A DNA stretch of 53,579 nucleotides from Candidatus Levyibacteriota bacterium (GTDB lineage Bacteria; Patescibacteriota; Microgenomatia; Levybacterales; GWA1-39-11): the NCBI GenBank assembly GCA_050255815.1, contig JBLMVJ010000020.1, positions 1-53,579 of the forward strand, in the 5' to 3' direction. The number at the start of each line of letters is the position of its first letter. Positions within the stretch are counted from its first letter, which is position 1. Both the position numbers and the translations under genes were made by a program. Under the pieces are notes generated by a model. The model had not been told where the DNA came from and searched no databases. It saw only the letters and a program-made list of their open reading frames with translations. This document shows positions 1-52,595 of this stretch, one piece after another.

Positions 1-149
1 CAAGCCTTATCACGTCATTTATTTTGTATTATTTTGGCAGCGGGGTGATACGGGGTTTTGCATTGACGCTGGCAATAGGAATCCTGGTTTCCATGTTCTC
101 AGCAATAGTAGTGACCAGGAACTTATTGAGAGTATTTGATCGCAAGTAG
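1..149 (+). CDS. secD: SecD protein-export membrane protein, C-terminal fragment (5' end outside the window)
   Basis: Frame ending at TAG 147-149 translates to ...GVIRGFALTLAIGILVSMFSAIVVTRNLLRVFDRK, typical of the last SecD TM helix. secF follows directly. Confidence 0.75.
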   Translation, partial: SLITSFILYYFGSGVIRGFALTLAIGILVSMFSAIVVTRNLLRVFDRK

Positions 150-206
150 CATGTAGCAGGTAGCACGTAGTGTAAATACCACTTGCTACCCGCCACGAGC
201 CACAAG
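142..206 (+). repeat. Heptamer-phased tract 1: GCAAGTA GCATGTA GCAGGTA GCACGTA, then CCACTTG CTACCCG CCACGAG CCACAAG
   Basis: Read directly. TAG occurs at 147, 154, 161 and 168 (7-nt spacing); the first TAG is the secD stop codon. The second arm is partly complementary to the first. Confidence 0.85.
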
Positions 207-4258: not shown

Positions 4259-5983
4259 ATGTCGTTACGGGAAGCGGTATACGAGCAATTTAATTTTATC
4301 ATGAAAACGTGGAAAGTACTTCACTCTGAACCGGTAAAAAAACTCGATGAACAGAAAATCATCAAAATCCTTCTTAAAAACAGGGGATTAGAAACAAAAA
4401 AAGAAATAGAAGGTTTTCTCAATCCTTCTTTGGATAGTGTAACTTTTCAAGCAGTTGGAGTAGATGATAGAGAGTTGAATCAAACACTGGATCTCATACA
4501 AAAAACAATCAAGGAAAACAAATGGATTGTGATATATGGGGATTATGATGTAGATGGTATTTGTGCAGCTGCAATCTTATGGGAAACCATCTATGCTTTT
4601 TACCGGCAGGTTCAGCCATATATTCCCCATAGGATAGATGAGGGATATGGCCTTTCTGAAAAAGGAATTCAGAATTTAGAGTCTAAAATTCAGAACATTG
4701 GATTAATTATTACCGTAGACAATGGGGTAGTCGCTCATAAGGCGATTGAATACGCCAAAAGCCTTGGAATTTCAGTGATAGTTACAGACCATCATGTGGC
4801 AGGAGATAAAAAGCTGAATGCAGATGCAGTGGTGCATACAACGCAGTTATGCGGAACTGGAATTGCGTACCTTCTGGCAAAAGAAATAACCAATAACCAA
4901 GCACCAATGTTCAAACCAATAAATAATGAACAATTCAATAATGAGGAAGAGCATCTCGAATTAGTTGCATTGGCGACGGTTGCAGATTTGGTCCCACTAA
5001 ATAAATATAATAGGGCATTGTTAAAATCAGGACTTGAATATCTGCGCACAACAAAACGTTTGGGACTGTTAGCTCTTTTTGATGAAGCGCAGGTAAAAAA
5101 AGAGGAAATAGATACGTACCATATAGGACATATTATTGCACCCAGGCTCAATGCATCAGGCAGGATTACTCATGCATTGGATTCACTCAGGTTATTGTGT
5201 ACAAAAGACGCTGCAAGGGCAAAAGTACTGGCAAAGCATTTAGGGAATATAAATAGAGAGCGGCAACAAATTACTTTTGATTCTGCTGAAGAGGCAAAGA
5301 ATCAAATTAGAAATACCAAGCTCGAAACTCAAAATATTTTAGTGGTTGAGAGTGAGATGTATGAACAGGGAGTCATAGGTTTAATAGCGTCTCGGTTAGT
5401 AGAAGAATTTTATAAACCTGCTATTGCAGTTTCCGTGGGAGAAAAAATATCAAAGGGATCTGCCAGATCTGTTAGTGGGGTGAATATTATAGAGCTTATC
5501 CGTTCCTGTTCAGATATTCTTTCTGAAGCCGGGGGACACCCTATGGCAGCAGGATTTAGTATAGAAACCATAAGGCTAGAGGAATTTAAGAATAAATTGA
5601 TAAGTCTGGCAGAGAAGTTAGATAAAAACTTGTTCCAGCGGAATCTTACCATAGATATGGAGTTACCGTGGAATATGGTAGGAATTGAATTATGTGATGA
5701 AATTGAAAAATTGAAACCTTTTGGCATGGGAAATCCTCAGCCTGTTTTTTTTGTAAGCAATGTTACCGTAAGTTCGTTTAAAAAAGTTGGGGTGGATGGA
5801 AAACACTTGCAGTTATTTTTAGAAAAAGACGGGAAAATGCTAAAAGGTATATTCTTCAGGCATAATGGGGATGCAATTCAGCAGGGAAGCAGGGTGGATG
5901 TTGTGTTTACCCCGGATAAACACGAATGGAATGGAAATATCAGTGTAGAGTTAAAGATAAAAGATATTAAAATTATTTCTTAA
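4259..5983 (+). CDS. recJ: Single-stranded-DNA-specific exonuclease RecJ
   Basis: 574 aa. DHH-family motifs YGDYDVDGICAAAIL, ITVDNG, VTDHH, and DHHA1 GGHPMAAG. Alternative start at ATG 4301. Confidence 0.9.
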   Translation: MSLREAVYEQFNFIMKTWKVLHSEPVKKLDEQKIIKILLKNRGLETKKEIEGFLNPSLDSVTFQAVGVDDRELNQTLDLIQKTIKENKWIVIYGDYDVDGICAAAILWETIYAFYRQVQPYIPHRIDEGYGLSEKGIQNLESKIQNIGLIITVDNGVVAHKAIEYAKSLGISVIVTDHHVAGDKKLNADAVVHTTQLCGTGIAYLLAKEITNNQAPMFKPINNEQFNNEEEHLELVALATVADLVPLNKYNRALLKSGLEYLRTTKRLGLLALFDEAQVKKEEIDTYHIGHIIAPRLNASGRITHALDSLRLLCTKDAARAKVLAKHLGNINRERQQITFDSAEEAKNQIRNTKLETQNILVVESEMYEQGVIGLIASRLVEEFYKPAIAVSVGEKISKGSARSVSGVNIIELIRSCSDILSEAGGHPMAAGFSIETIRLEEFKNKLISLAEKLDKNLFQRNLTIDMELPWNMVGIELCDEIEKLKPFGMGNPQPVFFVSNVTVSSFKKVGVDGKHLQLFLEKDGKMLKGIFFRHNGDAIQQGSRVDVVFTPDKHEWNGNISVELKIKDIKIIS

Positions 5984-9812: not shown

Positions 9813-9880
9813 ATTCTTATATCGGAGTTTTCCGATCTTACATTGAGTATATTGTAGAGCCTGTGATAAAATCAAGCTGT

Positions 9881-11098
9881 ATGAATAGTCAAGTACGTGT
9901 ACGTTTTGCGCCGAGTCCTACCGGAACCCTTCATGTAGGCGGTGTCAGGACCGCACTTTTTAATTATTTTCTTGCCAGGTCTACCGGTGGTGTCTTTATT
10001 CTCAGAATTGAAGATACAGACCAGGCAAGAAAGGTAGAAGGAGCAGTGGAGCAAATCCGGGAATCACTGCAGTGGCTGGGGGCTGACTGGGATGAATTAG
10101 TGACCCAATCCCAACGCCTTGATGTATACAAAAAATATGCTGATCAGCTGGTTTCAGAAGGAAAAGCAAAAGTAGATGAAGGGGCAATCAGATTTATTAC
10201 TCCTAAAGAAGGAATAACCGGCTGGACAGATGCAGTTGGGAATAAAGAAATTTCTTTTGCAAATAAAGATATTGAGGATTTTATTATTTTAAAAAAAGAC
10301 GGTTATCCTACTTACCACCTTGCAAATGTAGTAGACGACCACCTGATGGAAATTTCCCATGTAATCCGTGGAGAAGATTGGATTCCTTCAGCACCAAAGC
10401 ACCTTATGTTGTATAAGTCATTTGGCTGGAACCCGCCCATTTTTGCCCATGTCCCAAATATTTTAGGTACTGACGGGAAAAAGCTTTCAAAACGCAGGGG
10501 AGCAAAATCAGTCCTTGATTTTAAGCATGAAGGTTATTTGTCGGAAGCATTATTGAATTATTTGATGCTTTTAGGATGGTCTCCAAAAGATAATCGGGAA
10601 ATTTTGGGCCGGAATGAATTACAAAAAGAATTTAAGCTGGAAAATGTAAACTCAGCACCTGCAGTCTTTGATGAACGGAAGCTATTGTGGATGAATGGCG
10701 AATATATTAGGGAATTTAAAATTCAAGATTTAAAATTTAAAATTTTAGAATACGACCCACAGATTTCCTCCCTTCATCATTTTAATGAGTATTTGTCGCT
10801 GGCACAGACCAGGATGAAGACGCTTGCAGACTTTCGGGAACTTGCAGAAAATAAAAAAACAGAACTTTCTGAGAAACAAAAAGAACTGGCAAAAAATCTT
10901 ATTGAAGCATTTCAAAGTATCGCATGGAATAAGGATGAAATTCTAAAAACCGCATTTAATGTCCGGGATAACCTGGGCCTTTCTACAAAAGACTTATACG
11001 TCGTACTGACCGGAAAACCCCAGGGACTGCCGCTTGCAGAGAAGCTGGAAACTGACGGGCAGGAGGAGACAATAATTTTTCTCCAAAAACAAATATGA
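9881..11098 (+). CDS. gltX: Glutamate--tRNA ligase (short, 405 aa)
   Basis: VRVRFAPSPTGTLHVGGVRTALFNY (HIGH region), ILRIEDTDQAR, and KLSKRRG (KMSKS equivalent). Confidence 0.9.
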   Translation: MNSQVRVRFAPSPTGTLHVGGVRTALFNYFLARSTGGVFILRIEDTDQARKVEGAVEQIRESLQWLGADWDELVTQSQRLDVYKKYADQLVSEGKAKVDEGAIRFITPKEGITGWTDAVGNKEISFANKDIEDFIILKKDGYPTYHLANVVDDHLMEISHVIRGEDWIPSAPKHLMLYKSFGWNPPIFAHVPNILGTDGKKLSKRRGAKSVLDFKHEGYLSEALLNYLMLLGWSPKDNREILGRNELQKEFKLENVNSAPAVFDERKLLWMNGEYIREFKIQDLKFKILEYDPQISSLHHFNEYLSLAQTRMKTLADFRELAENKKTELSEKQKELAKNLIEAFQSIAWNKDEILKTAFNVRDNLGLSTKDLYVVLTGKPQGLPLAEKLETDGQEETIIFLQKQI

Positions 11099-12722: not shown

Positions 12723-13718
12723 ATGGAGCGGGTAGAAACCGGTTTGAAACACCACATCCTCAAGAACCATATTATTGTAGCCCTTCTTTTTGTCCTTTCA
12801 TTATGGTTCATTGTGCAGCTTCGTGAAATTCTGGTAATCCTTTTCATGGGTTACATTCTCATGGTTGCGCTGCTTCCCTATGTAGAATTTTTAGTTAAGC
12901 ATAAAATCCCCAGAGCTTTGGCAGCAGGTATAGTGTATTTTGTTGTCCTTGCGGTGGTAGCTCTTTTAATAGTCCCTCTTATTCCCTTTTTCTCAACTCA
13001 ATTCCAGTCGCTTATTCGCTCTTTTCCCGCATACCTGAATGGTATTTTAAAATTGTTACGAGTTGAGATGAATCCTTCCCAGATTCAGGCATTTATTGTA
13101 TCCCAACTAAATGCTATTGGTTCCAGCGCTTTTGCCGTGACAGGAGCAATATTAGGTACTGTATTTTCAACTTTCCTTGTTTTTGTTATTAGTTTTTACT
13201 TAACCCTAGATTATGAACGGATGAAACGGGAGCTGAGTCTCCTGTTCCCTAAAAACCAAAAAGAAAAAATGATGGATATTTTAATGCAGGTTGAAGATAA
13301 ACTGGGCGCATGGTTTAGGGGTCAAATTGTGCTATGTTTTTCAATAGGCTTACTTACCTGGATAGCATTATCAATTATTAATTTTCCGTTTGCACTCCCC
13401 CTGGCACTTTTGGCAGGTCTTTTAGAGATTATTCCAACCATAGGCCCTATCCTTTCTGCGGTTCCGGCTGCTATAGTTGCCCTTTCTATCTCACCCGGTA
13501 TGACATTTCTGGTGATCCTTATTTACATAGGGATTCAGGCCCTGGAAAATAATCTCTTTGTTCCCAAAATAATGCAGCGGGCAGTAGGATTAAATCCTAT
13601 TCTTATTATTATAGGAATCAGTGTGGGGGCGACCCTTATGGGGATTATTGGAGCCTTGTTATCTATTCCTTTTATTGCTATGCTCATCATTATTATCAGA
13701 AATATTTCTGAAGAATAG
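12723..13718 (+). CDS. AI-2E family transporter (PerM/UPF0118)
   Basis: 331 aa, about 8 TM helices. Signature LLAGLLEIIPTIGPILSAVPAAIVAL and LENNLFVPKIM. Confidence 0.85.
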   Translation: MERVETGLKHHILKNHIIVALLFVLSLWFIVQLREILVILFMGYILMVALLPYVEFLVKHKIPRALAAGIVYFVVLAVVALLIVPLIPFFSTQFQSLIRSFPAYLNGILKLLRVEMNPSQIQAFIVSQLNAIGSSAFAVTGAILGTVFSTFLVFVISFYLTLDYERMKRELSLLFPKNQKEKMMDILMQVEDKLGAWFRGQIVLCFSIGLLTWIALSIINFPFALPLALLAGLLEIIPTIGPILSAVPAAIVALSISPGMTFLVILIYIGIQALENNLFVPKIMQRAVGLNPILIIIGISVGATLMGIIGALLSIPFIAMLIIIIRNISEE

Positions 13719-13737
13719 TAATGTGTAATTTAGCCCC

Positions 13738-13765
13738 TTGATTCCATCTTTTTCTTTGTTATAAT
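13738..13765 (+). promoter_or_regulatory. Candidate sigma70-type promoter
   Basis: TTGATT (13738-13743), N16, TATAAT (13760-13765), 40 nt upstream of the wHTH gene. Confidence 0.4.
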
Positions 13766-13804
13766 TCCATAAGAACTGCCTCATAATCCTCTGCCTTTTT
13801 CTAC

Positions 13805-14086
13805 ATGGAACTTATTTTAGATACGAAAAAAAGGACGGTCACCAGGGGTGGAAGAACTATTAAGTTGTCCCCACGGGAAATGAATTTGCTTTCTTATTTT
13901 ATCCGCAATAAAAATAATATAGTTGACAGAAAAAATCTCCTCATTAATATTTGGAATTATGCGCCTGATATTGATACGCGGGTAGTAGATGTATATGTGG
14001 GATATCTGCGAAGAAAGATTGATAGCGGATATTCAAAAAAACTAATACATTCCGTACGCGGCTTAGGGTACCTCTTTAAAGAATAG
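13805..14086 (+). CDS. Stand-alone OmpR/PhoB-type winged-helix DNA-binding domain protein (no receiver domain)
   Basis: 93 aa. IKLSPREMNLLSYF, VVDVYVGYLRRKID and IHSVRGLGYLF match only the Trans_reg_C effector domain. Confidence 0.75.
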   Translation: MELILDTKKRTVTRGGRTIKLSPREMNLLSYFIRNKNNIVDRKNLLINIWNYAPDIDTRVVDVYVGYLRRKIDSGYSKKLIHSVRGLGYLFKE

Positions 14087-14106
14087 TATCTACTTGCTGA
14101 AAATGA

Positions 14107-14136
14107 AAACGAGCAAACCACAAGGCTTGCTCGTTT
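14107..14136 (-). terminator. Intrinsic terminator downstream of the 62-aa gene
   Basis: On the minus strand: AAACGAGCAAGCC-TTGT-GGTTTGCTCGTTT followed by TCATTTT. The stem needs one G-U pair on the minus strand but an A-C mismatch on the plus strand. Confidence 0.55.
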
Positions 14137-14159
14137 CCGGTTTCGAAACCAAAATTCCC

Positions 14160-14348
14160 TTACATTCCAGGAGCCGCCGGAGGTGTTCCTCCTCCCATAT
14201 CAGTTCCTCCTGTTGAAGGTTCCGGTGTTGGGGCTGCTGGTTCCGGAGCTGCAGGCATTCCTCCGCCCATGTCTGGTACTGGAGCTGCTGGTTCCGGAGC
14301 CGGAGGAGTCTGTGCAGGCATTCCGCCTTGGTTTTGTGTATCATCCAT
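14160..14348 (-). CDS. Pro/Ala/Gly-rich repetitive 62-aa protein
   Basis: GGAGGTG sits 10 nt upstream of the ATG and a terminator lies 24 nt after the stop. Internal repeats GGMPAxxPxAPEPAAP and DMGGG. Confidence 0.5.
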   Translation of the reverse strand: MDDTQNQGGMPAQTPPAPEPAAPVPDMGGGMPAAPEPAAPTPEPSTGGTDMGGGTPPAAPGM

Positions 14349-14429
14349 TATTCATATTCACCTCCCCTATTTACTTACCATTTCATTGTTTCATAATTTA
14401 AAACACTACGCAAGACAACTGGGTAACTC

Positions 14430-18323: not shown

Positions 18324-18408
18324 AAATAATTATATCACTATTTTTATACGGCAAAAGACAGAAGATATTTTAGATTCTTCCGTCTTTTGCTTTTTTTGAC
18401 CGGAACCG

Positions 18409-18543
18409 CTATTCCTGGTTTTTATCCGTTGTGTCATCTTCTCCCCAATCCTCCATCATCTGGTCATCATTGCTTGCTCTTCCGCCTTTTATACCTTCCT
18501 GGTCTTCTTGTTCCTGGTCAATTCTTTGATCATCATCTGCCAT
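18409..18543 (-). CDS. Small acidic 44-aa protein, paralogue A (below the ORF-track size cutoff)
   Basis: AAGGAGGTGAATAACATATG start context. Translation: MADDDQRIDQEQEDQEGIKGGRASNDDQMMEDWGEDDTTDKNQE. A weak hairpin (18354-18387) lies downstream. Confidence 0.5.
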   Translation of the reverse strand: MADDDQRIDQEQEDQEGIKGGRASNDDQMMEDWGEDDTTDKNQE

Positions 18544-18591
18544 ATGTTATTCACCTCCTTTCAGGTTTATTTTGAATAGCCTTTTCCGGCG

Positions 18592-18726
18592 CTACTCGTT
18601 CCGGTCCTCTTTTGAGTCCTCCTCATTTTTGTCGTAAGCACTTCCTCCCTTTTCTCCTTTTTCATGCTCAGACTTGGATTGGGACTGATCCATTTTGTCT
18701 TCATCATTTTTTGTATTGTCTGCCAT
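18592..18726 (-). CDS. Small acidic 44-aa protein, paralogue B (below the ORF-track size cutoff)
   Basis: AAGGAGGTGAAAAAACATATG start context, almost identical to paralogue A. Translation: MADNTKNDEDKMDQSQSKSEHEKGEKGGSAYDKNEEDSKEDRNE. Confidence 0.5.
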   Translation of the reverse strand: MADNTKNDEDKMDQSQSKSEHEKGEKGGSAYDKNEEDSKEDRNE

Positions 18727-18749
18727 ATGTTTTTTCACCTCCTTTTCTT

Positions 18750-19232: not shown

Positions 19233-19436
19233 GAACCCATATTACGGTTTATCTGTTAGAGGAAAATAGCATTTCCGTAGAAAAACGGTAAGAAACATTT
19301 GAGCTGAATATAGACAATCACTTGCTGATATAGCGGAAAGAGACTAGGGAGGTTTTTGTCCACAAACAACTTAATTAGATAAATTCTTAAATATCCTTGA
19401 CTACAGACATGCTCTAGCTGTACGCTAGATATTGGC

Positions 19437-25480: not shown

Positions 25481-26106
25481 AAAATTTGATTAAAAAAATA
25501 AGAAATCCAAAAGTCTTACGGGTTTTAATTGGGGCATTGATAGTTATTCTTGTTGTAGGAGGGTACCTCTTTTTTGAGAAAACAAACGGGCGGGTGCAGA
25601 TAGATAATTCTTTAGTTCAGTCACCCATTATTAACATAGTTCCCGCTGCTCCCGGACGCCTTATGGAGCTGGATGCGGTAGAAGGGCATATGGTAAAAAC
25701 AGGGGATACACTGGCAGTAGTAGGATCTGAAACTATAAGGTCGCAGACTAATGGTTTGATAATCCTGGCAAATAATCAGGTAGGAGGAACGGTTTCTCCT
25801 ACGCAGCCGCTTATCCAAATTATTGCAACCCAAAATATGCGGATTGCCGGGACCATAGATGAAAATAAGGGACTGAGTGATATAAAAGTAGGACAGCCGG
25901 TTTCTTTTACCGTAGACGCTTTACCCGGTACGTTTTGGGGATATGTAGATGAGATTTCCCCTTCTGCAAAACAAACCCAGGCAGCGTTTTCTATTTCTTC
26001 AGAACGCCCTACCCAGCAATTTGTGGTATATGCCCGTTTTAACAGTGCAGCTTATCCTCTCATTAAAAACGGCATGAGTGTCAAAATGACCGTTTTCACC
26101 AAGTGA
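25477..26106 (+). CDS. Short HlyD-family secretion/adaptor protein (EmrA-like)
   Basis: N-terminal TM helix. VEGHMVKTGDTLAVV lipoyl-like motif and VGQPVSFTVDALPG barrel motif. ATGA overlap with the upstream gene. Confidence 0.7.
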   Translation: MKNLIKKIRNPKVLRVLIGALIVILVVGGYLFFEKTNGRVQIDNSLVQSPIINIVPAAPGRLMELDAVEGHMVKTGDTLAVVGSETIRSQTNGLIILANNQVGGTVSPTQPLIQIIATQNMRIAGTIDENKGLSDIKVGQPVSFTVDALPGTFWGYVDEISPSAKQTQAAFSISSERPTQQFVVYARFNSAAYPLIKNGMSVKMTVFTK

Positions 26107-27623
26107 TGTCAGAGAAAAAAAAGAAGGCCTCCTTCCAGGCCCAGCAATGGATGATACTCACTACCGTTATGATTGCCTCTTTTTTGGGGAGGCTTGACGG
26201 TACTATTGTAAACCTGGCACTGCCTAAAATTATTACCGATTTTGGCATCACGGTTTCCCAGGCCAGTTGGATTTCTACGGCATACATTATTGCAAACGCT
26301 ATTTTTGTCCCTATTTTTGGAAAACTGGGAGATTTAATAGGACGCAAATCGCTCTATATTTTTGGTATAGTCGGGTTTACCATTACTTCTGCTTTGGCCG
26401 GCCTTTCTTTTAACCTTCCATCTATGGTGATTTTCCGTATCCTGCAGGCAATTACCGTATCTATTGATTATCCTATTGCGCTTTCAATTATTGCCTATGA
26501 ATTTAAAGACCGCGGACAGCGTGCCCAAGCCATGGGATTGTGGTCTGCTGTTTTTGCCGGGGCTGCAGTTTTTGGTCCGCTTTTGGGAGGTCCGTTAATT
26601 GACGTTTTCTCCTGGCGTTCTGTGTTTTATATCAATATTCCATTAGGGATTATAGGCACCTATATGGCATGGCAGTTTATCCATGAGCCAAAAAGGGAAA
26701 TAAAAGGAGTGAAGAATTTTGACGTTTTAGGTTCTTTGCTTTTAGGTATATCGCTCGGCGTTCTTGTACTGGTTTTGGACCAGGGACAATCCTGGGGATG
26801 GACCAGCCGGAATAGCATTATCTCTTATGTTATTACTATTGCCTCTATGCTTCTATTCCTTTTTGTTGAAAGCCGCCAGAAAGAGCCGGTTGTTGATTTA
26901 AAATTCTTTAAAATCCCTACCTTTTCAGCAGCTATAGTCACTTCATTTATTTCTTTCATGGGTATGATAGGCGGAATTTTTTTGATTCCTATTTTTGTAC
27001 AAACATACCTGGGATATTCCGTGACTAAAACCGGATATTTATTTATCCCTATGGCTTTTGGTATTGGAGTTTCTGCCCAGATTGGAGCCAGGCTTTCTGC
27101 CCGGATTCAGCCCCGCATTATCACCGCTTTTGGCATGGCAGTATCTGCAGCAGCTTTATATTTTCTGTTTTCCGGAATTGACGTAAAATGGGGAGCCTGG
27201 GATGTTATCTGGAGGTTAACTCTCTTTGCGGCAGGATTGGGAATAGGTCTTTCTCCGTTAACGAATGCTGCAACTTCAACGGTTCCTATCCATGAAGTTG
27301 GTATTGCGTCTTCAGTATTAGCTTTGGCACGCAATATCTCAGGGGCTTTTGGTGTTGCTATTTTCGCAACTATCTTAACAGATAGTACTACCCGCCAGTT
27401 GGTAACCCTGCAAAAATATTCTGTGATAAATTCAACGGACCCGGTAGCAATCCAAACATACATGGGTTTATTGGCAGTAAAAGCAAATGTGTTGGCATAC
27501 TCAACCGTGTTTAAAGTGGCCGGAGTCTTGTTGGGCTTAGGAGCAGTATCTGCGTTATTTGTGAAAGAGAGTAAGCGTGATTTTGGGGCAGTGCCGGAAG
27601 AGCATCAGATGATAGAAATGTAG
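26103..27623 (+). CDS. MFS transporter, DHA2 (EmrB/QacA, 14-TMS) family
   Basis: 506 aa. LDGTIVNLALPKI, GKLGDLIGRK (motif A) and 14 hydrophobic segments. Confidence 0.9.
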   Translation: MMSEKKKKASFQAQQWMILTTVMIASFLGRLDGTIVNLALPKIITDFGITVSQASWISTAYIIANAIFVPIFGKLGDLIGRKSLYIFGIVGFTITSALAGLSFNLPSMVIFRILQAITVSIDYPIALSIIAYEFKDRGQRAQAMGLWSAVFAGAAVFGPLLGGPLIDVFSWRSVFYINIPLGIIGTYMAWQFIHEPKREIKGVKNFDVLGSLLLGISLGVLVLVLDQGQSWGWTSRNSIISYVITIASMLLFLFVESRQKEPVVDLKFFKIPTFSAAIVTSFISFMGMIGGIFLIPIFVQTYLGYSVTKTGYLFIPMAFGIGVSAQIGARLSARIQPRIITAFGMAVSAAALYFLFSGIDVKWGAWDVIWRLTLFAAGLGIGLSPLTNAATSTVPIHEVGIASSVLALARNISGAFGVAIFATILTDSTTRQLVTLQKYSVINSTDPVAIQTYMGLLAVKANVLAYSTVFKVAGVLLGLGAVSALFVKESKRDFGAVPEEHQMIEM

Positions 27624-27690
27624 AACATTTATATCCTCCGTGCCGGATGAAAGAAATGTAGAACATTTATATCCTCCGTGCCGGATGAAA
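27615..27690 (+). repeat. Perfect 38-bp tandem duplication (2 copies) spanning the MFS gene stop codon
   Basis: GAAATGTAGAACATTTATATCCTCCGTGCCGGATGAAA at 27615-27652 is repeated exactly at 27653-27690. Confidence 0.95.
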
Positions 27691-29124: not shown

Positions 29125-29169
29125 GGCAGTTACATACTATAACACCTTATTTTTGTTTTCTCAAGTCTG

Positions 29170-29364
29170 TTACATCTTGAGGAGTTCCAGGATGCGGTAG
29201 AGTAAGAATCCGGGCCATAAAACTGCCTTAAGAATTCCAAACAACCCCTCCGTTAACGTATGGGAATGTTGAAGGTAGTAAATAAGGGCGCCAACCAACC
29301 CCATACCATATACCGCACTTCCTCCTGATTGATGGTTAATTTGCTTCCATGATTTATTTGCCAT
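29170..29364 (-). CDS. Hypothetical 64-aa two-TM membrane protein
   Basis: Two hydrophobic helices (AVYGMGLVGALIYYL and LFGILKAVLWPGFLLY). No family recognised. Confidence 0.4.
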   Translation of the reverse strand: MANKSWKQINHQSGGSAVYGMGLVGALIYYLQHSHTLTEGLFGILKAVLWPGFLLYRILELLKM

Positions 29365-29419
29365 ACCATTACTGTACTCCTTGTCTTATGGGAAATCAAC
29401 CAAGTATAGATAGGGGAAA

Positions 29420-29517
29420 GATGTAGGTTATAGGACTTAAGATATACGAAATTTCTTAGGTCTTACGTCTTACATCATAAGTCTATCCACCAGAAGTTAG
29501 AAGCTAGGATCTAATCA
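29420..29517 (+). repeat. Heptamer-phased tract 2, forming a long imperfect hairpin upstream of tspO
   Basis: GATGTAG GTTATAG GACTTAA GATATAC ... CTTAGGT CTTACGT CTTACAT CATAAGT ... TTAGAAG CTAGGAT CTAATCA. The arm at 29420-29441 pairs with 29455-29476 (22 positions, 4 G-U pairs, 2 mismatches). Confidence 0.8.
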
Positions 29518-30031: not shown

Positions 30032-30046
30032 TTCCTGTATCCAGGT

Positions 30047-30081
30047 AATACTTAATTCTGAATACTTGATACTTAATACTC
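30047..30081 (+). repeat. Heptamer-phased tract 3: AATACTT AATTCTG AATACTT GATACTT AATACTC
   Basis: Read directly. Lies between the convergent tspO and mgtA-like genes. TAC occurs at 30049, 30063, 30070 and 30077. Confidence 0.8.
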
Positions 30082-32805: not shown

Positions 32806-33929
32806 AAGACTTCATATTTACCTCAGAATCTGTCTGCGCGGGACATCCGGATAAAATTTGTGACCAGGTTAGCGATGCTATTGTTGATGCGGTACTGGAA
32901 AAAGATCCAAAAGGCAGAGTTGCGGTTGAAACATTAGTCACTGAAAATAAAATTGTGCTGGCAGGGGAAGTTACTACCGGTGCAAAAATTAATTTTGAAA
33001 AAATATCGCGGGAAACTATTAAAAAGCTTGGTTATACAAATCCCCATTTAAAATTTACCAATGAATCTCCTTTAGAAATATATATCCACCAGCAGTCACG
33101 TGAAATTGCTGCAGGTGTGGATACGGATGGGGCAGGGGACCAGGGAATGATGTTTGGATTTGCTTGTACAGACACTCCTGAGTATATGCCCATGCCCGTA
33201 ACGCTGGCGCACAAGCTTGCGGAAAAGATTGATGAGGCAAGAGTTTCAAAAAAGTTACCATATCTGCGTCCTGATGGGAAGACGCAAGTAAGCGTTCTGT
33301 ATAAAGATGGCCAACCGTATAAAATCACCTCTGTTGTAATAGCAGTTCCCCATGATGAAAACAAAAAACTTAAAGAAGTAAAGGAGGATATCTTTGAACA
33401 AGTGGTAAAACCTATGCTTTCCGGTTATGGATTTTCAATTGAGCCGGATAAGCTTCTGGTAAATGGGACAGGAGTCTGGCATATAGGGGGACCGGCAAGT
33501 GATACCGGGGTAACAGGGAGAAAAATTGTAGTTGATACCTATGGGGGATTTGCACGGGTAGGAGGAGGTGCTTTTTCCGGTAAGGACCCCACAAAAGTAG
33601 ACCGGTCGGGTGCATATGCAGCACGTTTTTTGGCAAAAAATATAGTAGCAGCAGGATTGGCTGACAAAGCAGAAGTACAACTGGCTTATTGTATAGGACA
33701 ATGCAGGCCTACCATGCAGGAGGTGGAAACATTTGGGACAGGAAAAGTTCCAAAGAAAAAGATACAACAATTCATGGCTGACCTTTTAGATACTTCTGTG
33801 AAAGGAATACTTGAAACTTTAGACTTGAGAAAGCCCCGGTATCTCAAGACTGCTGCCTACGGCCACTTTGGCAGAGAAGGGTTCCCATGGGAGCAGGTGA
33901 GGGTAAAGGGTCAAGGGTCAAGGGGTTAG
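32802..33929 (+). CDS. metK: S-adenosylmethionine synthase
   Basis: FTSESVCAGHPDKICDQVSDAIVDA, GAGDQGMMFGFA, GGPASDTGVTGRKIVVDTYGG and GGGAFSGKDPTKVDRSGAY. ATG 32802 was chosen because the upstream ATG 32760 lies inside the riboswitch. Confidence 0.9.
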   Translation: MKDFIFTSESVCAGHPDKICDQVSDAIVDAVLEKDPKGRVAVETLVTENKIVLAGEVTTGAKINFEKISRETIKKLGYTNPHLKFTNESPLEIYIHQQSREIAAGVDTDGAGDQGMMFGFACTDTPEYMPMPVTLAHKLAEKIDEARVSKKLPYLRPDGKTQVSVLYKDGQPYKITSVVIAVPHDENKKLKEVKEDIFEQVVKPMLSGYGFSIEPDKLLVNGTGVWHIGGPASDTGVTGRKIVVDTYGGFARVGGGAFSGKDPTKVDRSGAYAARFLAKNIVAAGLADKAEVQLAYCIGQCRPTMQEVETFGTGKVPKKKIQQFMADLLDTSVKGILETLDLRKPRYLKTAAYGHFGREGFPWEQVRVKGQGSRG

Positions 33930-33971
33930 TAATTATTTATACCTATACCCTAAACCCTAAATCCTATTCCC
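33902..33971 (+). repeat. Heptamer-phased tract 4: GGTAAAG GGTCAAG GGTCAAG GGGTTAG ... TATACCC TAAACCC TAAATCC TATTCCC
   Basis: Read directly. The two arms are imperfectly complementary, with periodic internal mismatches. The G-rich arm encodes the last residues of metK (KGQGSRG). Confidence 0.8.
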
Positions 33972-35718: not shown

Positions 35719-35965
35719 TCTGAGGTTTTGCCTCTTTTACTGCTATGCTGCGTCCTGCTATTTGAGTACCGTTCAGTTGGTTAAGTGCCAGTTTTGCAAG
35801 ATCTTCAGTTTCCATCTCTACAAATCCAAACCCTTTTCCCTGCCCGGTCATTCTATCTACAATAACTTTAGCTGAAAGGACTTTTCCAATTTTTGAAAAA
35901 TGTTCTTCTAGCTGTGCGTCAGTTGTGCTGTAATCTAGGCTTCCTATAAATAATTTATTTGTCAT
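35708..35965 (-). CDS. RRM-type RNA-binding protein
   Basis: 85 aa. RNP-2 KLFIGSL and RNP-1 KGFGFVEM. AAAGGAGGAA Shine-Dalgarno upstream. Overlaps the helicase start by 11 nt. Confidence 0.85.
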   Translation of the reverse strand: MTNKLFIGSLDYSTTDAQLEEHFSKIGKVLSAKVIVDRMTGQGKGFGFVEMETEDLAKLALNQLNGTQIAGRSIAVKEAKPQIAR

Positions 35966-36230
35966 GCGTTCCTCCTTTCTTTAGGATTTCATGCGTGTGT
36001 ACGCAAAAACTTCTGCTCAAAATGAAGTGGGTCTTTTATATATGAAGATACAAAGTGGAATAGTGAGGTATCTTTATCTTTATTAAAAAACTAAATCTTC
36101 TTAAGCAGATGTTTCTGTGTACATCTGCACTGAAGACATTATAGCATAGTTGATTTCTAATGTCCAGTACACTATAGGATTATGCCTGAATAGCCCTGAT
36201 AAGCGGAAAACTTGACGTGAAACGTTAATT

Positions 36231-51894: not shown

Positions 51895-51929
51895 CAAGTA
51901 TTAAGTATCGAGTATAGAGTATTGAGTAT
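51892..51929 (+). repeat. Heptamer-phased tract 5 between sufB and sufD: (TAA)CAAG TATTAAG TATCGAG TATAGAG TATTGAG TAT
   Basis: Read directly. The sufB stop TAA (51892) is followed by TAT at 51899, 51906, 51913, 51920 and 51927, all 7 nt apart. Confidence 0.85.
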
Positions 51930-52485
51930 GATGAAGAATATAATTATCAAAAAAGATGAAGAAAAGATTTTGCCTGTGGTTTGGACCGGAGGAGAAGAGC
52001 ACATTGATTACAAGATCTTACTCTCCCAGCCCGGAGCCAGTATTATCCTGTTGATGCTTTTTTTAGGCAAAAAACAACATGCAGGATTGGTCAACGTTTC
52101 CGTTATCCATGATTCTCCCCAAACAAAAAGCAAGGTTTTAGTAAAAGGAATCTTGGAAGACAGTGCATCTATAGACTTCAACGGACTGGTAAAAATACAG
52201 GAAAAAGCCAAAGGGTCACAGGCTTGGTTAGGGGCACATCTGCTGTTATTATCTGAATCAGCAAAAGGAAGGGCAGTGCCCAGCCTGGAGATTTTAGAGA
52301 ATGATGTGAAGGCAGGCCATGCAACCACTGTTGGAAGGATTAATGACAACCAGGTGTTTTATCTTATGTCCCGGGGACTCTCCAAAAAACAAGCAAGGAA
52401 GCTGATTATAGAAGGTTTTGTCCAGCAGTTTCTTGCTGAGTTCCCGGAGGAAGAGCGGAAGAAGGCAAGAAGAGAGTTGATGTAA
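51928..52485 (+). CDS. sufD: SufD-like Fe-S assembly protein (short SufBD-family form)
   Basis: 185 aa. C-terminal GHATTVGRINDNQVFYLMSRGLSKKQARKLIIEGF is the SufBD signature. Far shorter than canonical SufD. Confidence 0.7.
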   Translation: MMKNIIIKKDEEKILPVVWTGGEEHIDYKILLSQPGASIILLMLFLGKKQHAGLVNVSVIHDSPQTKSKVLVKGILEDSASIDFNGLVKIQEKAKGSQAWLGAHLLLLSESAKGRAVPSLEILENDVKAGHATTVGRINDNQVFYLMSRGLSKKQARKLIIEGFVQQFLAEFPEEERKKARRELM

Positions 52486-52513
52486 GATATAGGACGTAAG
52501 ACAAAAGATTTCT
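52479..52513 (+). repeat. Heptamer-phased tract 6 after sufD: GATGTAA GATATAG GACGTAA GACAAAA GATTTCT
   Basis: Read directly. The sufD stop TAA (52483) is followed by TAG (52490) and TAA (52497). The first 22 nt resemble the arms of tract 2 (GATGTAGGTTATAGGACTTAAG). Confidence 0.7.
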
Positions 52514-52595
52514 CGTCCAAAGGACTTGAACAATATGCTTCTCATGCTGGTATAAATATTCTTCGAACTGGCGAAGCCAAGTGAGAAGTCTAGAT

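Follow-up and report, generated by a model that had tools for sequence, protein, structure and literature searches.

Heptanucleotide repeats are, according to the accounts of Mrazek, Guo & Shah (2007) given in PMC4679880 and PMC4692102, the most abundant class of simple-sequence repeats (SSRs) with units of 5 to 11 nt in many prokaryotes; the same accounts describe their distribution as sporadic and name polymerase slippage as the proposed cause. Xanthomonas genomes carry intergenic GGGAATC arrays that are degenerate (GGGANTN), form 70 to 75 inverted pairs per genome and are capable of folding into stem-loops (Rehm et al. 2015, PMC4692102), and the length of these arrays differs between sister species (PMC4692102). 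In the Beggiatoaceae, direct repeats of TAACTGA lie upstream of start codons at about 170 loci (MacGregor 2015, PMC4679880), often without a canonical ribosome-binding site, and a role in translation has been proposed but not shown (PMC4679880). Four-unit heptamer elements have been described in Geobacter, and in Nostoc, heptamer repeats close to recF and recO have modest effects on reporters. Here, we describe a tract between secD and secF in a 53,579-nt stretch of DNA from a Candidatus Levyibacteriota bacterium (contig JBLMVJ010000020.1; the whole stretch is called the window below). The tract is most probably a heptanucleotide SSR arranged as an inverted pair, or quasi-palindrome, and one of many in this Levybacteria genome. 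The class is known; we found no earlier mention of it for the host phylum, the Candidate Phyla Radiation (CPR), and no report in the literature of heptamer repeats in CPR or Patescibacteria.

The window opens inside secD, of which the 3' end is present (1–149, + strand, partial from the window edge). The reading frame ends in RVFDRK followed by TAG at 147–149, and the gene was identified by alignment of the SecD C-terminus and by the SecD Pfam domains in the upstream genes of the aligned relatives. Arm 1 of the tract (142–170, + strand) reads GCAAGTA GCATGTA GCAGGTA GCACGTA G, equivalent to GTAGCAN ×4, and is reported by Tandem Repeats Finder (TRF) at period 7 with 4.1 copies and 86% matches, i.e., with at least 3 copies head to tail. 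An earlier reading made from the letters alone (the sequence-only reading) had described 4 heptamers that differ at position 4 only (A, T, G and C) and TAG triplets at 147, 154, 161 and 168, the first being the secD stop codon; both points are confirmed, the heptamers lying at 142–169 and the open reading frame (ORF) ending at 147–149. Unit 1 thus consists of the last two codons of secD and most of its stop codon. An 8-nt loop, TGTAAATA (171–178, + strand, from the minimum free energy (MFE) structure), leads to arm 2 (179–207, + strand), which reads CCACTTG CTACCCG CCACGAG CCACAAG C and is degenerate. This arm had been described as heptamer-phased and partly complementary to arm 1; the complementarity holds, and the arms pair as an imperfect hairpin, while the phasing of arm 2 itself is weak, with a lag-7 identity of approximately 67% as counted from the sequence. 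The ATG of secF (212–1111, + strand; NCBIfam TIGR00966, E = 6e-84) sits 5 nt 3' of the hairpin base, and the gene has no recognisable Shine-Dalgarno (SD) sequence. The secD–secF spacer is 62 nt long, and the sequence 3' of the stem is UUAUAUGAAU. No terminator-like site (GC-rich stem plus U-tract) was found at 140–215, a promoter and terminator scan of 1–1300 gave no site at the tract, and Rfam covariance models had no match in the same region, either at the gathering threshold or at E ≤ 1.

To be counted as an array, a repeat had to have at least 3 copies and at least 85% identity at the lag, and the null was a set of 100 dinucleotide-preserving shuffles of the window. By this measure the window contains 8 period-7 arrays, compared to 0.24±0.49 (maximum 2) in the shuffles, and zero arrays at period 6 and at periods 8 to 15. 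TRF agrees, with period 7 in 13 of its 30 rows. A lag-7 autocorrelation, proposed as a check in the sequence-only reading, gave z = 4.6 in 5 kb of intergenic DNA, the top value after lag 1. The tract is therefore real and not a product of chance, and the 8 arrays bear out the suggestion that it is one of several period-7 tracts in this genome, as far as 53.6 kb of that genome can represent it. It is the only GTAGCAN array in the window.

The run of A, T, G and C in one column of arm 1 has no counterpart in most other arrays. Columns with all 4 bases occur in 9 of 361 surveyed arrays, versus 28.6 under a random-placement null; since such columns are rare and not enriched, we consider the run a curiosity rather than a pattern, and the same count rules out a hypervariable A/T/G/C column as a general signature. 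A column-concentration statistic gave z = 4.3 over 29 arrays, a value contaminated by array-edge effects. The TAG triplets do close all 3 reading frames of the + strand, as had been noted, but this is mere arithmetic, since 7 is coprime to 3, and not selected. Selection for all-frame stops can be rejected, as stop-containing units number 28 in 41 intergenic arrays compared to 30.2±2.1 expected from base-permuted heptamers.

With the same array criterion, we surveyed 80 loci centred on SecF, which total 1.26 Mb and belong to contigs of CPR, Chloroflexota, Dormibacterota and other origin. These loci have 73 arrays at period 7, versus 25, 3, 2 and 1 at periods 6, 8, 9 and 10, respectively. Counted over 1.28 Mb with crude gene calls, array density per kb is 0.35 in co-directional, 0.39 in convergent and 0.23 in divergent intergenic DNA, compared to 0.035 in ORFs; period-7 arrays are thus mainly intergenic, approximately 10-fold denser between genes than within coding sequence. 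A reverse-complement partner that is no more than 120 nt away and matches 12 or more of 14 bases accompanies 29 of 81 arrays (36%), whereas reversed and complemented controls yield 6 and 3. When at least 13 of 14 bases are demanded, 19 arrays have a partner and both controls give 0. At least 120 metagenome contigs, whose GC contents range from 31% to 72%, contain GTAGCAN itself in arrays of 3 copies, and some of these arrays are perfect inverted pairs. At gene 3' ends in these metagenome loci, 37 are in sense and 18 in antisense orientation, a count that is confounded because the crude gene caller absorbs the stop-free strand into ORFs. The secD–secF spacers of 3 surveyed loci (L051, L066 and L074) also hold heptamer arrays or hairpins, and in 4 loci (L028, L050, L084 and L212) arrays adjoin the secF stop. 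Heptamer arrays, often as inverted pairs, are therefore common in unrelated contigs, among them those of CPR, Chloroflexota and Dormibacterota, and the proposal of a lineage-specific family has to be abandoned. As a separate observation, a Magasanikbacteria contig (L081) contains 3 near-identical palindromes of approximately 100 nt (10955–11055, 12811–12913 and 19243–19342) whose arms are heptamer repeats (AAATGTC/AATTTCC...GGAAATT); in that genome, heptamer hairpins behave like a dispersed family of the repetitive extragenic palindromic (REP) or miniature inverted-repeat transposable element (MITE) kind.

Orthologous secD–secF junctions were compared in nine distinct loci from relatives (L001–L007 and L208–L212). 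SecF homologues place the window in Candidatus Levybacteria (CPR/Patescibacteria), and by SecF identity the closest is L001 (87%), followed by L002–L004 (81%) and L005–L007 (80%). The GTAGCAN tract is missing from all nine, which is the outcome that the sequence-only reading had itself named as refuting its proposal; for an SSR, such variation in presence among relatives amounts to the lability that characterises the class. The C-terminus of SecD is equally long throughout, ending in FDRK* in the window and in FDRK* or FDKS* in the relatives. Unit 1 is therefore native coding sequence (CGC-AAG-TAG) with the stop codon at its native position, and the fact that the array begins with secD's own end points to in-situ growth by slippage and not to an inserted element.

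The spacers themselves are diverse. L001 and L002–L004 have a different hairpin of approximately 75 nt, ATATACCG...CGGTATAT, with folding energies of −35 and −29 kcal/mol, respectively. It has the form ATATACCG...AACTCTYGGCG...TTGCCAGAGACTC...CGGTAT (L001, 130–215; L002, 4128–4236), and its outer parts are conserved between the two lineages (81–87% SecF identity). The L001 hairpin has no match in Rfam, and no homology was seen between the window spacer and the L001 and L002 hairpins. L005–L007 have a plain 30-nt spacer, and the 5 other Levybacteria with conserved synteny (L208–L212) have spacers of 20, 19, 5, 20 and 1 nt; in a set of 58 loci from CPR, Chloroflexota and other groups, the spacer has a median length of 8 nt. 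The 62-nt spacer, which had been called unexpected, is indeed long relative to this median, but the nearest relatives have 30 to about 115 nt. The number of period-7 arrays per 21 kb in the 5 Levybacteria is 0, 0, 1, 0 and 4, compared to 4 in the syntenic 21 kb of the window.

The region 138–211 was folded as RNA for both strands. The + strand hairpin has an MFE of −24.6 kcal/mol (z = −4.25) and the − strand hairpin an MFE of −40.9 kcal/mol (z = −8.0). On the + strand there is about one A·C mismatch per heptad, 4 in total, and the − strand stem is stronger because these turn into G·U pairs. The mRNA is predicted to form an imperfect stem of approximately 20 pairs, in which the U and G of each UAG are paired and the secD UAG lies 5 nt inside the 5' arm at the base; such a hairpin in the secDF mRNA may couple secF translation to that of secD, or stabilise the mRNA. 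A complementary arm, though degenerate, lies close by at 179–207, as in inverted heptamer pairs. Since every testable feature of the SSR class is present, i.e., head-to-tail copies, period-7 excess, a mainly intergenic distribution, lability among relatives and a nearby inverted arm, we assign the tract to the known heptanucleotide repeat class.

A plausible history starts with the 7-mer of secD's last codons, GCAAGTA, which would have been duplicated downstream through slipped-strand mispairing at replication, a process that favours 7-nt units in many prokaryotes. Intramolecular template switching could then have built or maintained the complementary arm, as for quasi-palindromes, and homogenisation within each arm, followed by blockwise divergence, would leave GTAG in arm 1 and the complement of GTGG in arm 2. 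Such internal homogenisation would account for arm 1 being uniformly GTAG and arm 2 mostly the GTGG complement. On the transcript, the base of the stem would bring the secD UAG at 147 beside the secF AUG at 212, so that a ribosome ending secD would have to melt the stem and would expose the SD-less secF start, resulting in coupling that depends on the structure; 3' exonucleases could also be impeded by the stem, with slower 3'-to-5' decay as a result. In our view, neither effect is the reason why the repeat exists, and both are by-products of a tract that is largely neutral and short-lived. Because most Levybacteria have spacers of 1–20 nt, and because the mRNA strand has the weaker of the two stems, we treat coupling and stability as incidental.

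Several observations weigh against a neutral repeat. Its origin by slippage and template switching is a deduction from the pattern. All 3 unit differences of arm 1 fall in one column (p about 0.008 locally), which would fit selection on the other 6 positions. Three of the 4 closest lineages have some stable hairpin in the spacer, with unrelated sequences, and a hairpin could thus be selected at this site. Finally, the + strand stem is much weaker than that of the − strand, which speaks against optimisation of the mRNA but would also allow action on either strand. A rival proposal is a selected intercistronic hairpin that makes secF translation dependent on secD, or that serves as a REP-like 3' barrier setting the SecD:SecF ratio, with the heptamer repeats as raw material only. 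Its appeal lies in the stability of the mRNA-strand stem (z = −4.25), in the stop and start codons each being about 5 nt from the stem base, in the missing SD of secF, and in the different stable hairpins of L001 and L002–L004 (−35 and −29 kcal/mol); moreover, translational coupling through intergenic structure that ribosomes help to unfold is already known (PMC4538824). We nevertheless consider this proposal possible but unlikely, given that L005–L007 and the 5 other Levybacteria manage with spacers of 1–30 nt and no hairpin, that the median over 58 loci is 8 nt, that the mRNA-strand stem is 16 kcal/mol weaker than the antisense one, and that heptamer hairpins are found in every intergenic type, divergent included. 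Decidedly doubtful is the notion that hairpins with heptamer arms have been selected as a class of their own, i.e., as tunable RNA or DNA structures of small or streamlined genomes such as those of CPR, tuned by slippage in 7-nt steps and placed at gene ends to set coupling or 3'-end stability, the unpaired, degenerate column keeping them below RNase III or cruciform thresholds. If this were true, the copy between secD and secF would serve to couple the two genes, with stop and start joined at the stem base. The far better folding of the − strand (−40.9 kcal/mol, z = −8.0) could mean that the functional molecule is an antisense RNA or a DNA hairpin, which is highly improbable: no − strand promoter or terminator is predicted at the tract, the sole − strand ORF (29–229) is a shadow of secD/secF, 27 heptamer hairpins show no consistent bias towards sense or antisense stability, and a difference of four mismatches against one is statistically not compelling.

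The sequence-only reading had proposed a binding array for an oligomeric RNA-binding protein, a REP-like mRNA stabiliser or a translation-decoupling spacer. The first of these would be an operator at which a protein like HutP or TRAP recognises UAG triplets in phase. A HutP operator consists of 2 sets of 3 UAG triplets with 4-nt spacers, and a TRAP operator of 9–11 (G/U)AG triplets with 2–3-nt spacers. Four UAG at N4 spacing formally equal one HutP half-site, but the second set is missing (arm 2 contains no UAG), there is no terminator or antiterminator nearby, and the context is secD–secF and not a hut leader; for TRAP, the tract offers 4 triplets with a 4-nt separation. In addition, the predicted stem engages the U and G of each UAG in pairs, the 53.6 kb contain no other GTAGCAN array, and the tract is not conserved in relatives. 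The other period-7 tracts of the window have unrelated heptamers, so they do not represent one shared operator and a HutP- or TRAP-type protein does not fit. Since GTAGCAN contigs span GC contents of 31% to 72%, there is also no single cognate lineage. A search for HutP or TRAP domains, likewise suggested earlier, found none in the 20 window proteins scanned of about 45, which is weak evidence. Nothing shows that the tract is a dedicated protein-binding operator, and we find this idea scarcely credible. Insertion of a REP- or MITE-like mobile palindromic element into the spacer fares somewhat better but is still very unlikely. The tract is an imperfect palindrome with units that start with GTAG, and REPs have a conserved 5' GTAG, a similarity to be taken as a lead only; two array types recur within the window, and the L081 palindromes with their heptamer arms provide a possible parallel. 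On the other hand, the window, which probably represents no more than a few percent of the genome, contains no second copy. Unit 1 is made of native secD codons and keeps the stop in its native position, which fits in-situ growth. The annotated genes, for which 20 of the approximately 45 window proteins were scanned, include no transposase and no REP-associated tyrosine transposase, and beyond the arms there are neither target-site duplications nor terminal repeats. An assembly artefact, also raised earlier, has a close to negligible probability: the array, at 29 nt, is shorter than any read, the secD stop is at its native position, secF is intact, and equivalent arrays are present in hundreds of independent assemblies. 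A heptanucleotide SSR that grew in place thus remains our preferred explanation of the tract.

The other period-7 tracts of the window, all given for the + strand and located by TRF and array scan unless stated otherwise, are found both within and between genes. Within cysS, ACCATGA ×4.6 (2169–2202) encodes DTMNHEPLTMNQ in a variable loop, and within recJ, AATAACC ×3.4 (4885–4907) lies in a variable linker; in both cases, the length and sequence of the loop differ from relative to relative. The cysS segment TMNHEPLTMNQ looks as if an ancestral T(M/V)NHE had grown in frame by 21 nt (3 × 7). A third array within a gene, AATTTAA ×4.7 (10713–10749), is in ORF 9863–11098. At the end of metK, AGGGTNA ×3.6 and CCCTAAA ×3.6, separated by a loop, form a hairpin (33899–33967; also supported by folding). 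The first arm is translated and supplies the last 8 MetK residues (an RVKGQGSRG-type tail) together with the stop codon, and the conserved MetK domain stops at residue 381 of 389. CCCTAAA coincides with the plant-type telomere unit. A GTCTTAC-type array (29421–29484; also supported by folding) pairs with upstream sequence (MFE −24, z = −3.9, + strand), and TAATACT ×5 (30046–30080; TRF) separates the convergent TspO and MgtA genes. GAGTATN ×4.7 (51897–51930) fills the sufB–sufD spacer, overlaps the sufD start and has no hairpin. The sufD homologue (51922–52485) directly follows sufB and, with 187 residues, comprises only the C-terminal part of SufD (profile positions 116–273 of 275); its candidate start codons, TTG at 51922 and ATG at 51931, are inside the GAGTATN array.

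Some of these tracts appear in mirrored order. The GTCTTAC-type palindrome (29420–29484), TspO and the TAATACT array (30046–30080) follow each other in one place, and an AGTATTN array (51897–51929), sufD and a GTAAGAC-type palindrome (52477–52516) in another. Over 33 nt, the two AGTATT arrays show 85% complementarity, and the palindromes agree at about 21 of 25 bases, a similarity for which approximately 10 chance matches are expected in a window of this size. The arrangement around TspO and sufD could be either a coincidence or a cassette-like structure. A repeat of another kind, the 38-nt unit GATGAAAGAAATGTAGAACATTTATATCCTCCGTGCCG at 27608–27690, is present in 2.2 tandem copies with 97% identity across the stop of ORF 26103–27623. 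The intergenic set of the window also contains a period-3 signal, because unlisted small ORFs lie inside the long "intergenic" stretches 13719–14429, 18324–18749, 29125–29400 and 35719–36000. One of these ORFs, on the + strand at about 13.84–14.12 kb, is an orphan OmpR-type winged-helix fragment; the others, all on the − strand, are Gly/Pro-rich and acidic, membrane-protein-like and RRM-like. As for translation starts, few window genes have a recognisable SD (examples of starts are 212, 1175, 12723 and 29558), and several start codons follow a TATAAT-like hexamer by 6–10 nt, a pattern that suggests leaderless or SD-independent initiation in the source organism. In one relative (L005, 2796–3149), a gene of the bAvd / 23S-rRNA-IVP family is inserted between those for YqeY and the CCA-adding enzyme, whereas the syntenic position in the window has no such gene.

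We advise against annotating the tract as a riboregulator or protein operator; by itself it matters little. Its wider meaning is that an unexplained preference for 7-nt repeats, together with inverted pairing, extends to CPR, Chloroflexota, Dormibacterota and other contigs; the spread over these phyla suggests a general property of replication and not a lineage-specific system. Arrays that grow from coding sequence can supply or replace stop codons, as in secD and metK, and can insert residues into protein loops, as in cysS and recJ, which is relevant to gene calling in metagenome-assembled genomes. Moreover, array-rich and array-poor Levybacteria with conserved synteny offer a natural contrast with which to find the genetic cause of the 7-nt bias.

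Compared with described systems, the tract has UAG triplets phased at 7 nt like one half-site of the HutP operator, but it is without the second half-site and the terminator, its gene context is wrong, and a cognate protein was not found among the 20 proteins scanned; its spacing does not fit that of a TRAP operator. With REP elements it shares the imperfect intergenic palindrome within an operon and possible effects on mRNA stability; unlike them, it is not multi-copy in the available sequence, has a 7-nt periodicity and apparently grew from local coding sequence. The TAACTGA repeats of the Beggiatoaceae are also arrays of stop-containing heptamers in short spacers beside start codons. There, however, one heptamer is reused, suggesting a shared factor, while each tract in the window has its own unit. 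The Xanthomonas inverted pairs are closer still, with neighbouring arrays on opposite strands, stem-loop or cruciform potential, degenerate positions, intergenic location and lability. They differ in that the same unit makes up about 180 arrays in each Xanthomonas genome, compared to a single locus in 53.6 kb for the unit of the tract, whose arm 2 is far more degenerate and which has no G-runs and hence no G-quadruplex potential. Relative to prokaryotic heptanucleotide SSRs in general (the long simple-sequence repeats, LSSRs, of Mrazek and the heptamers among the short tandemly repeated repetitive, STRR, sequences of cyanobacteria), the tract stands apart in its CPR host, in an array that overlaps and supplies a stop codon, and in one fully degenerate column. 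It has in common with them the 7-nt units, usually in 3–6 copies, the excess of period 7, the mostly intergenic location, the sporadic phylogeny and units that differ by locus.

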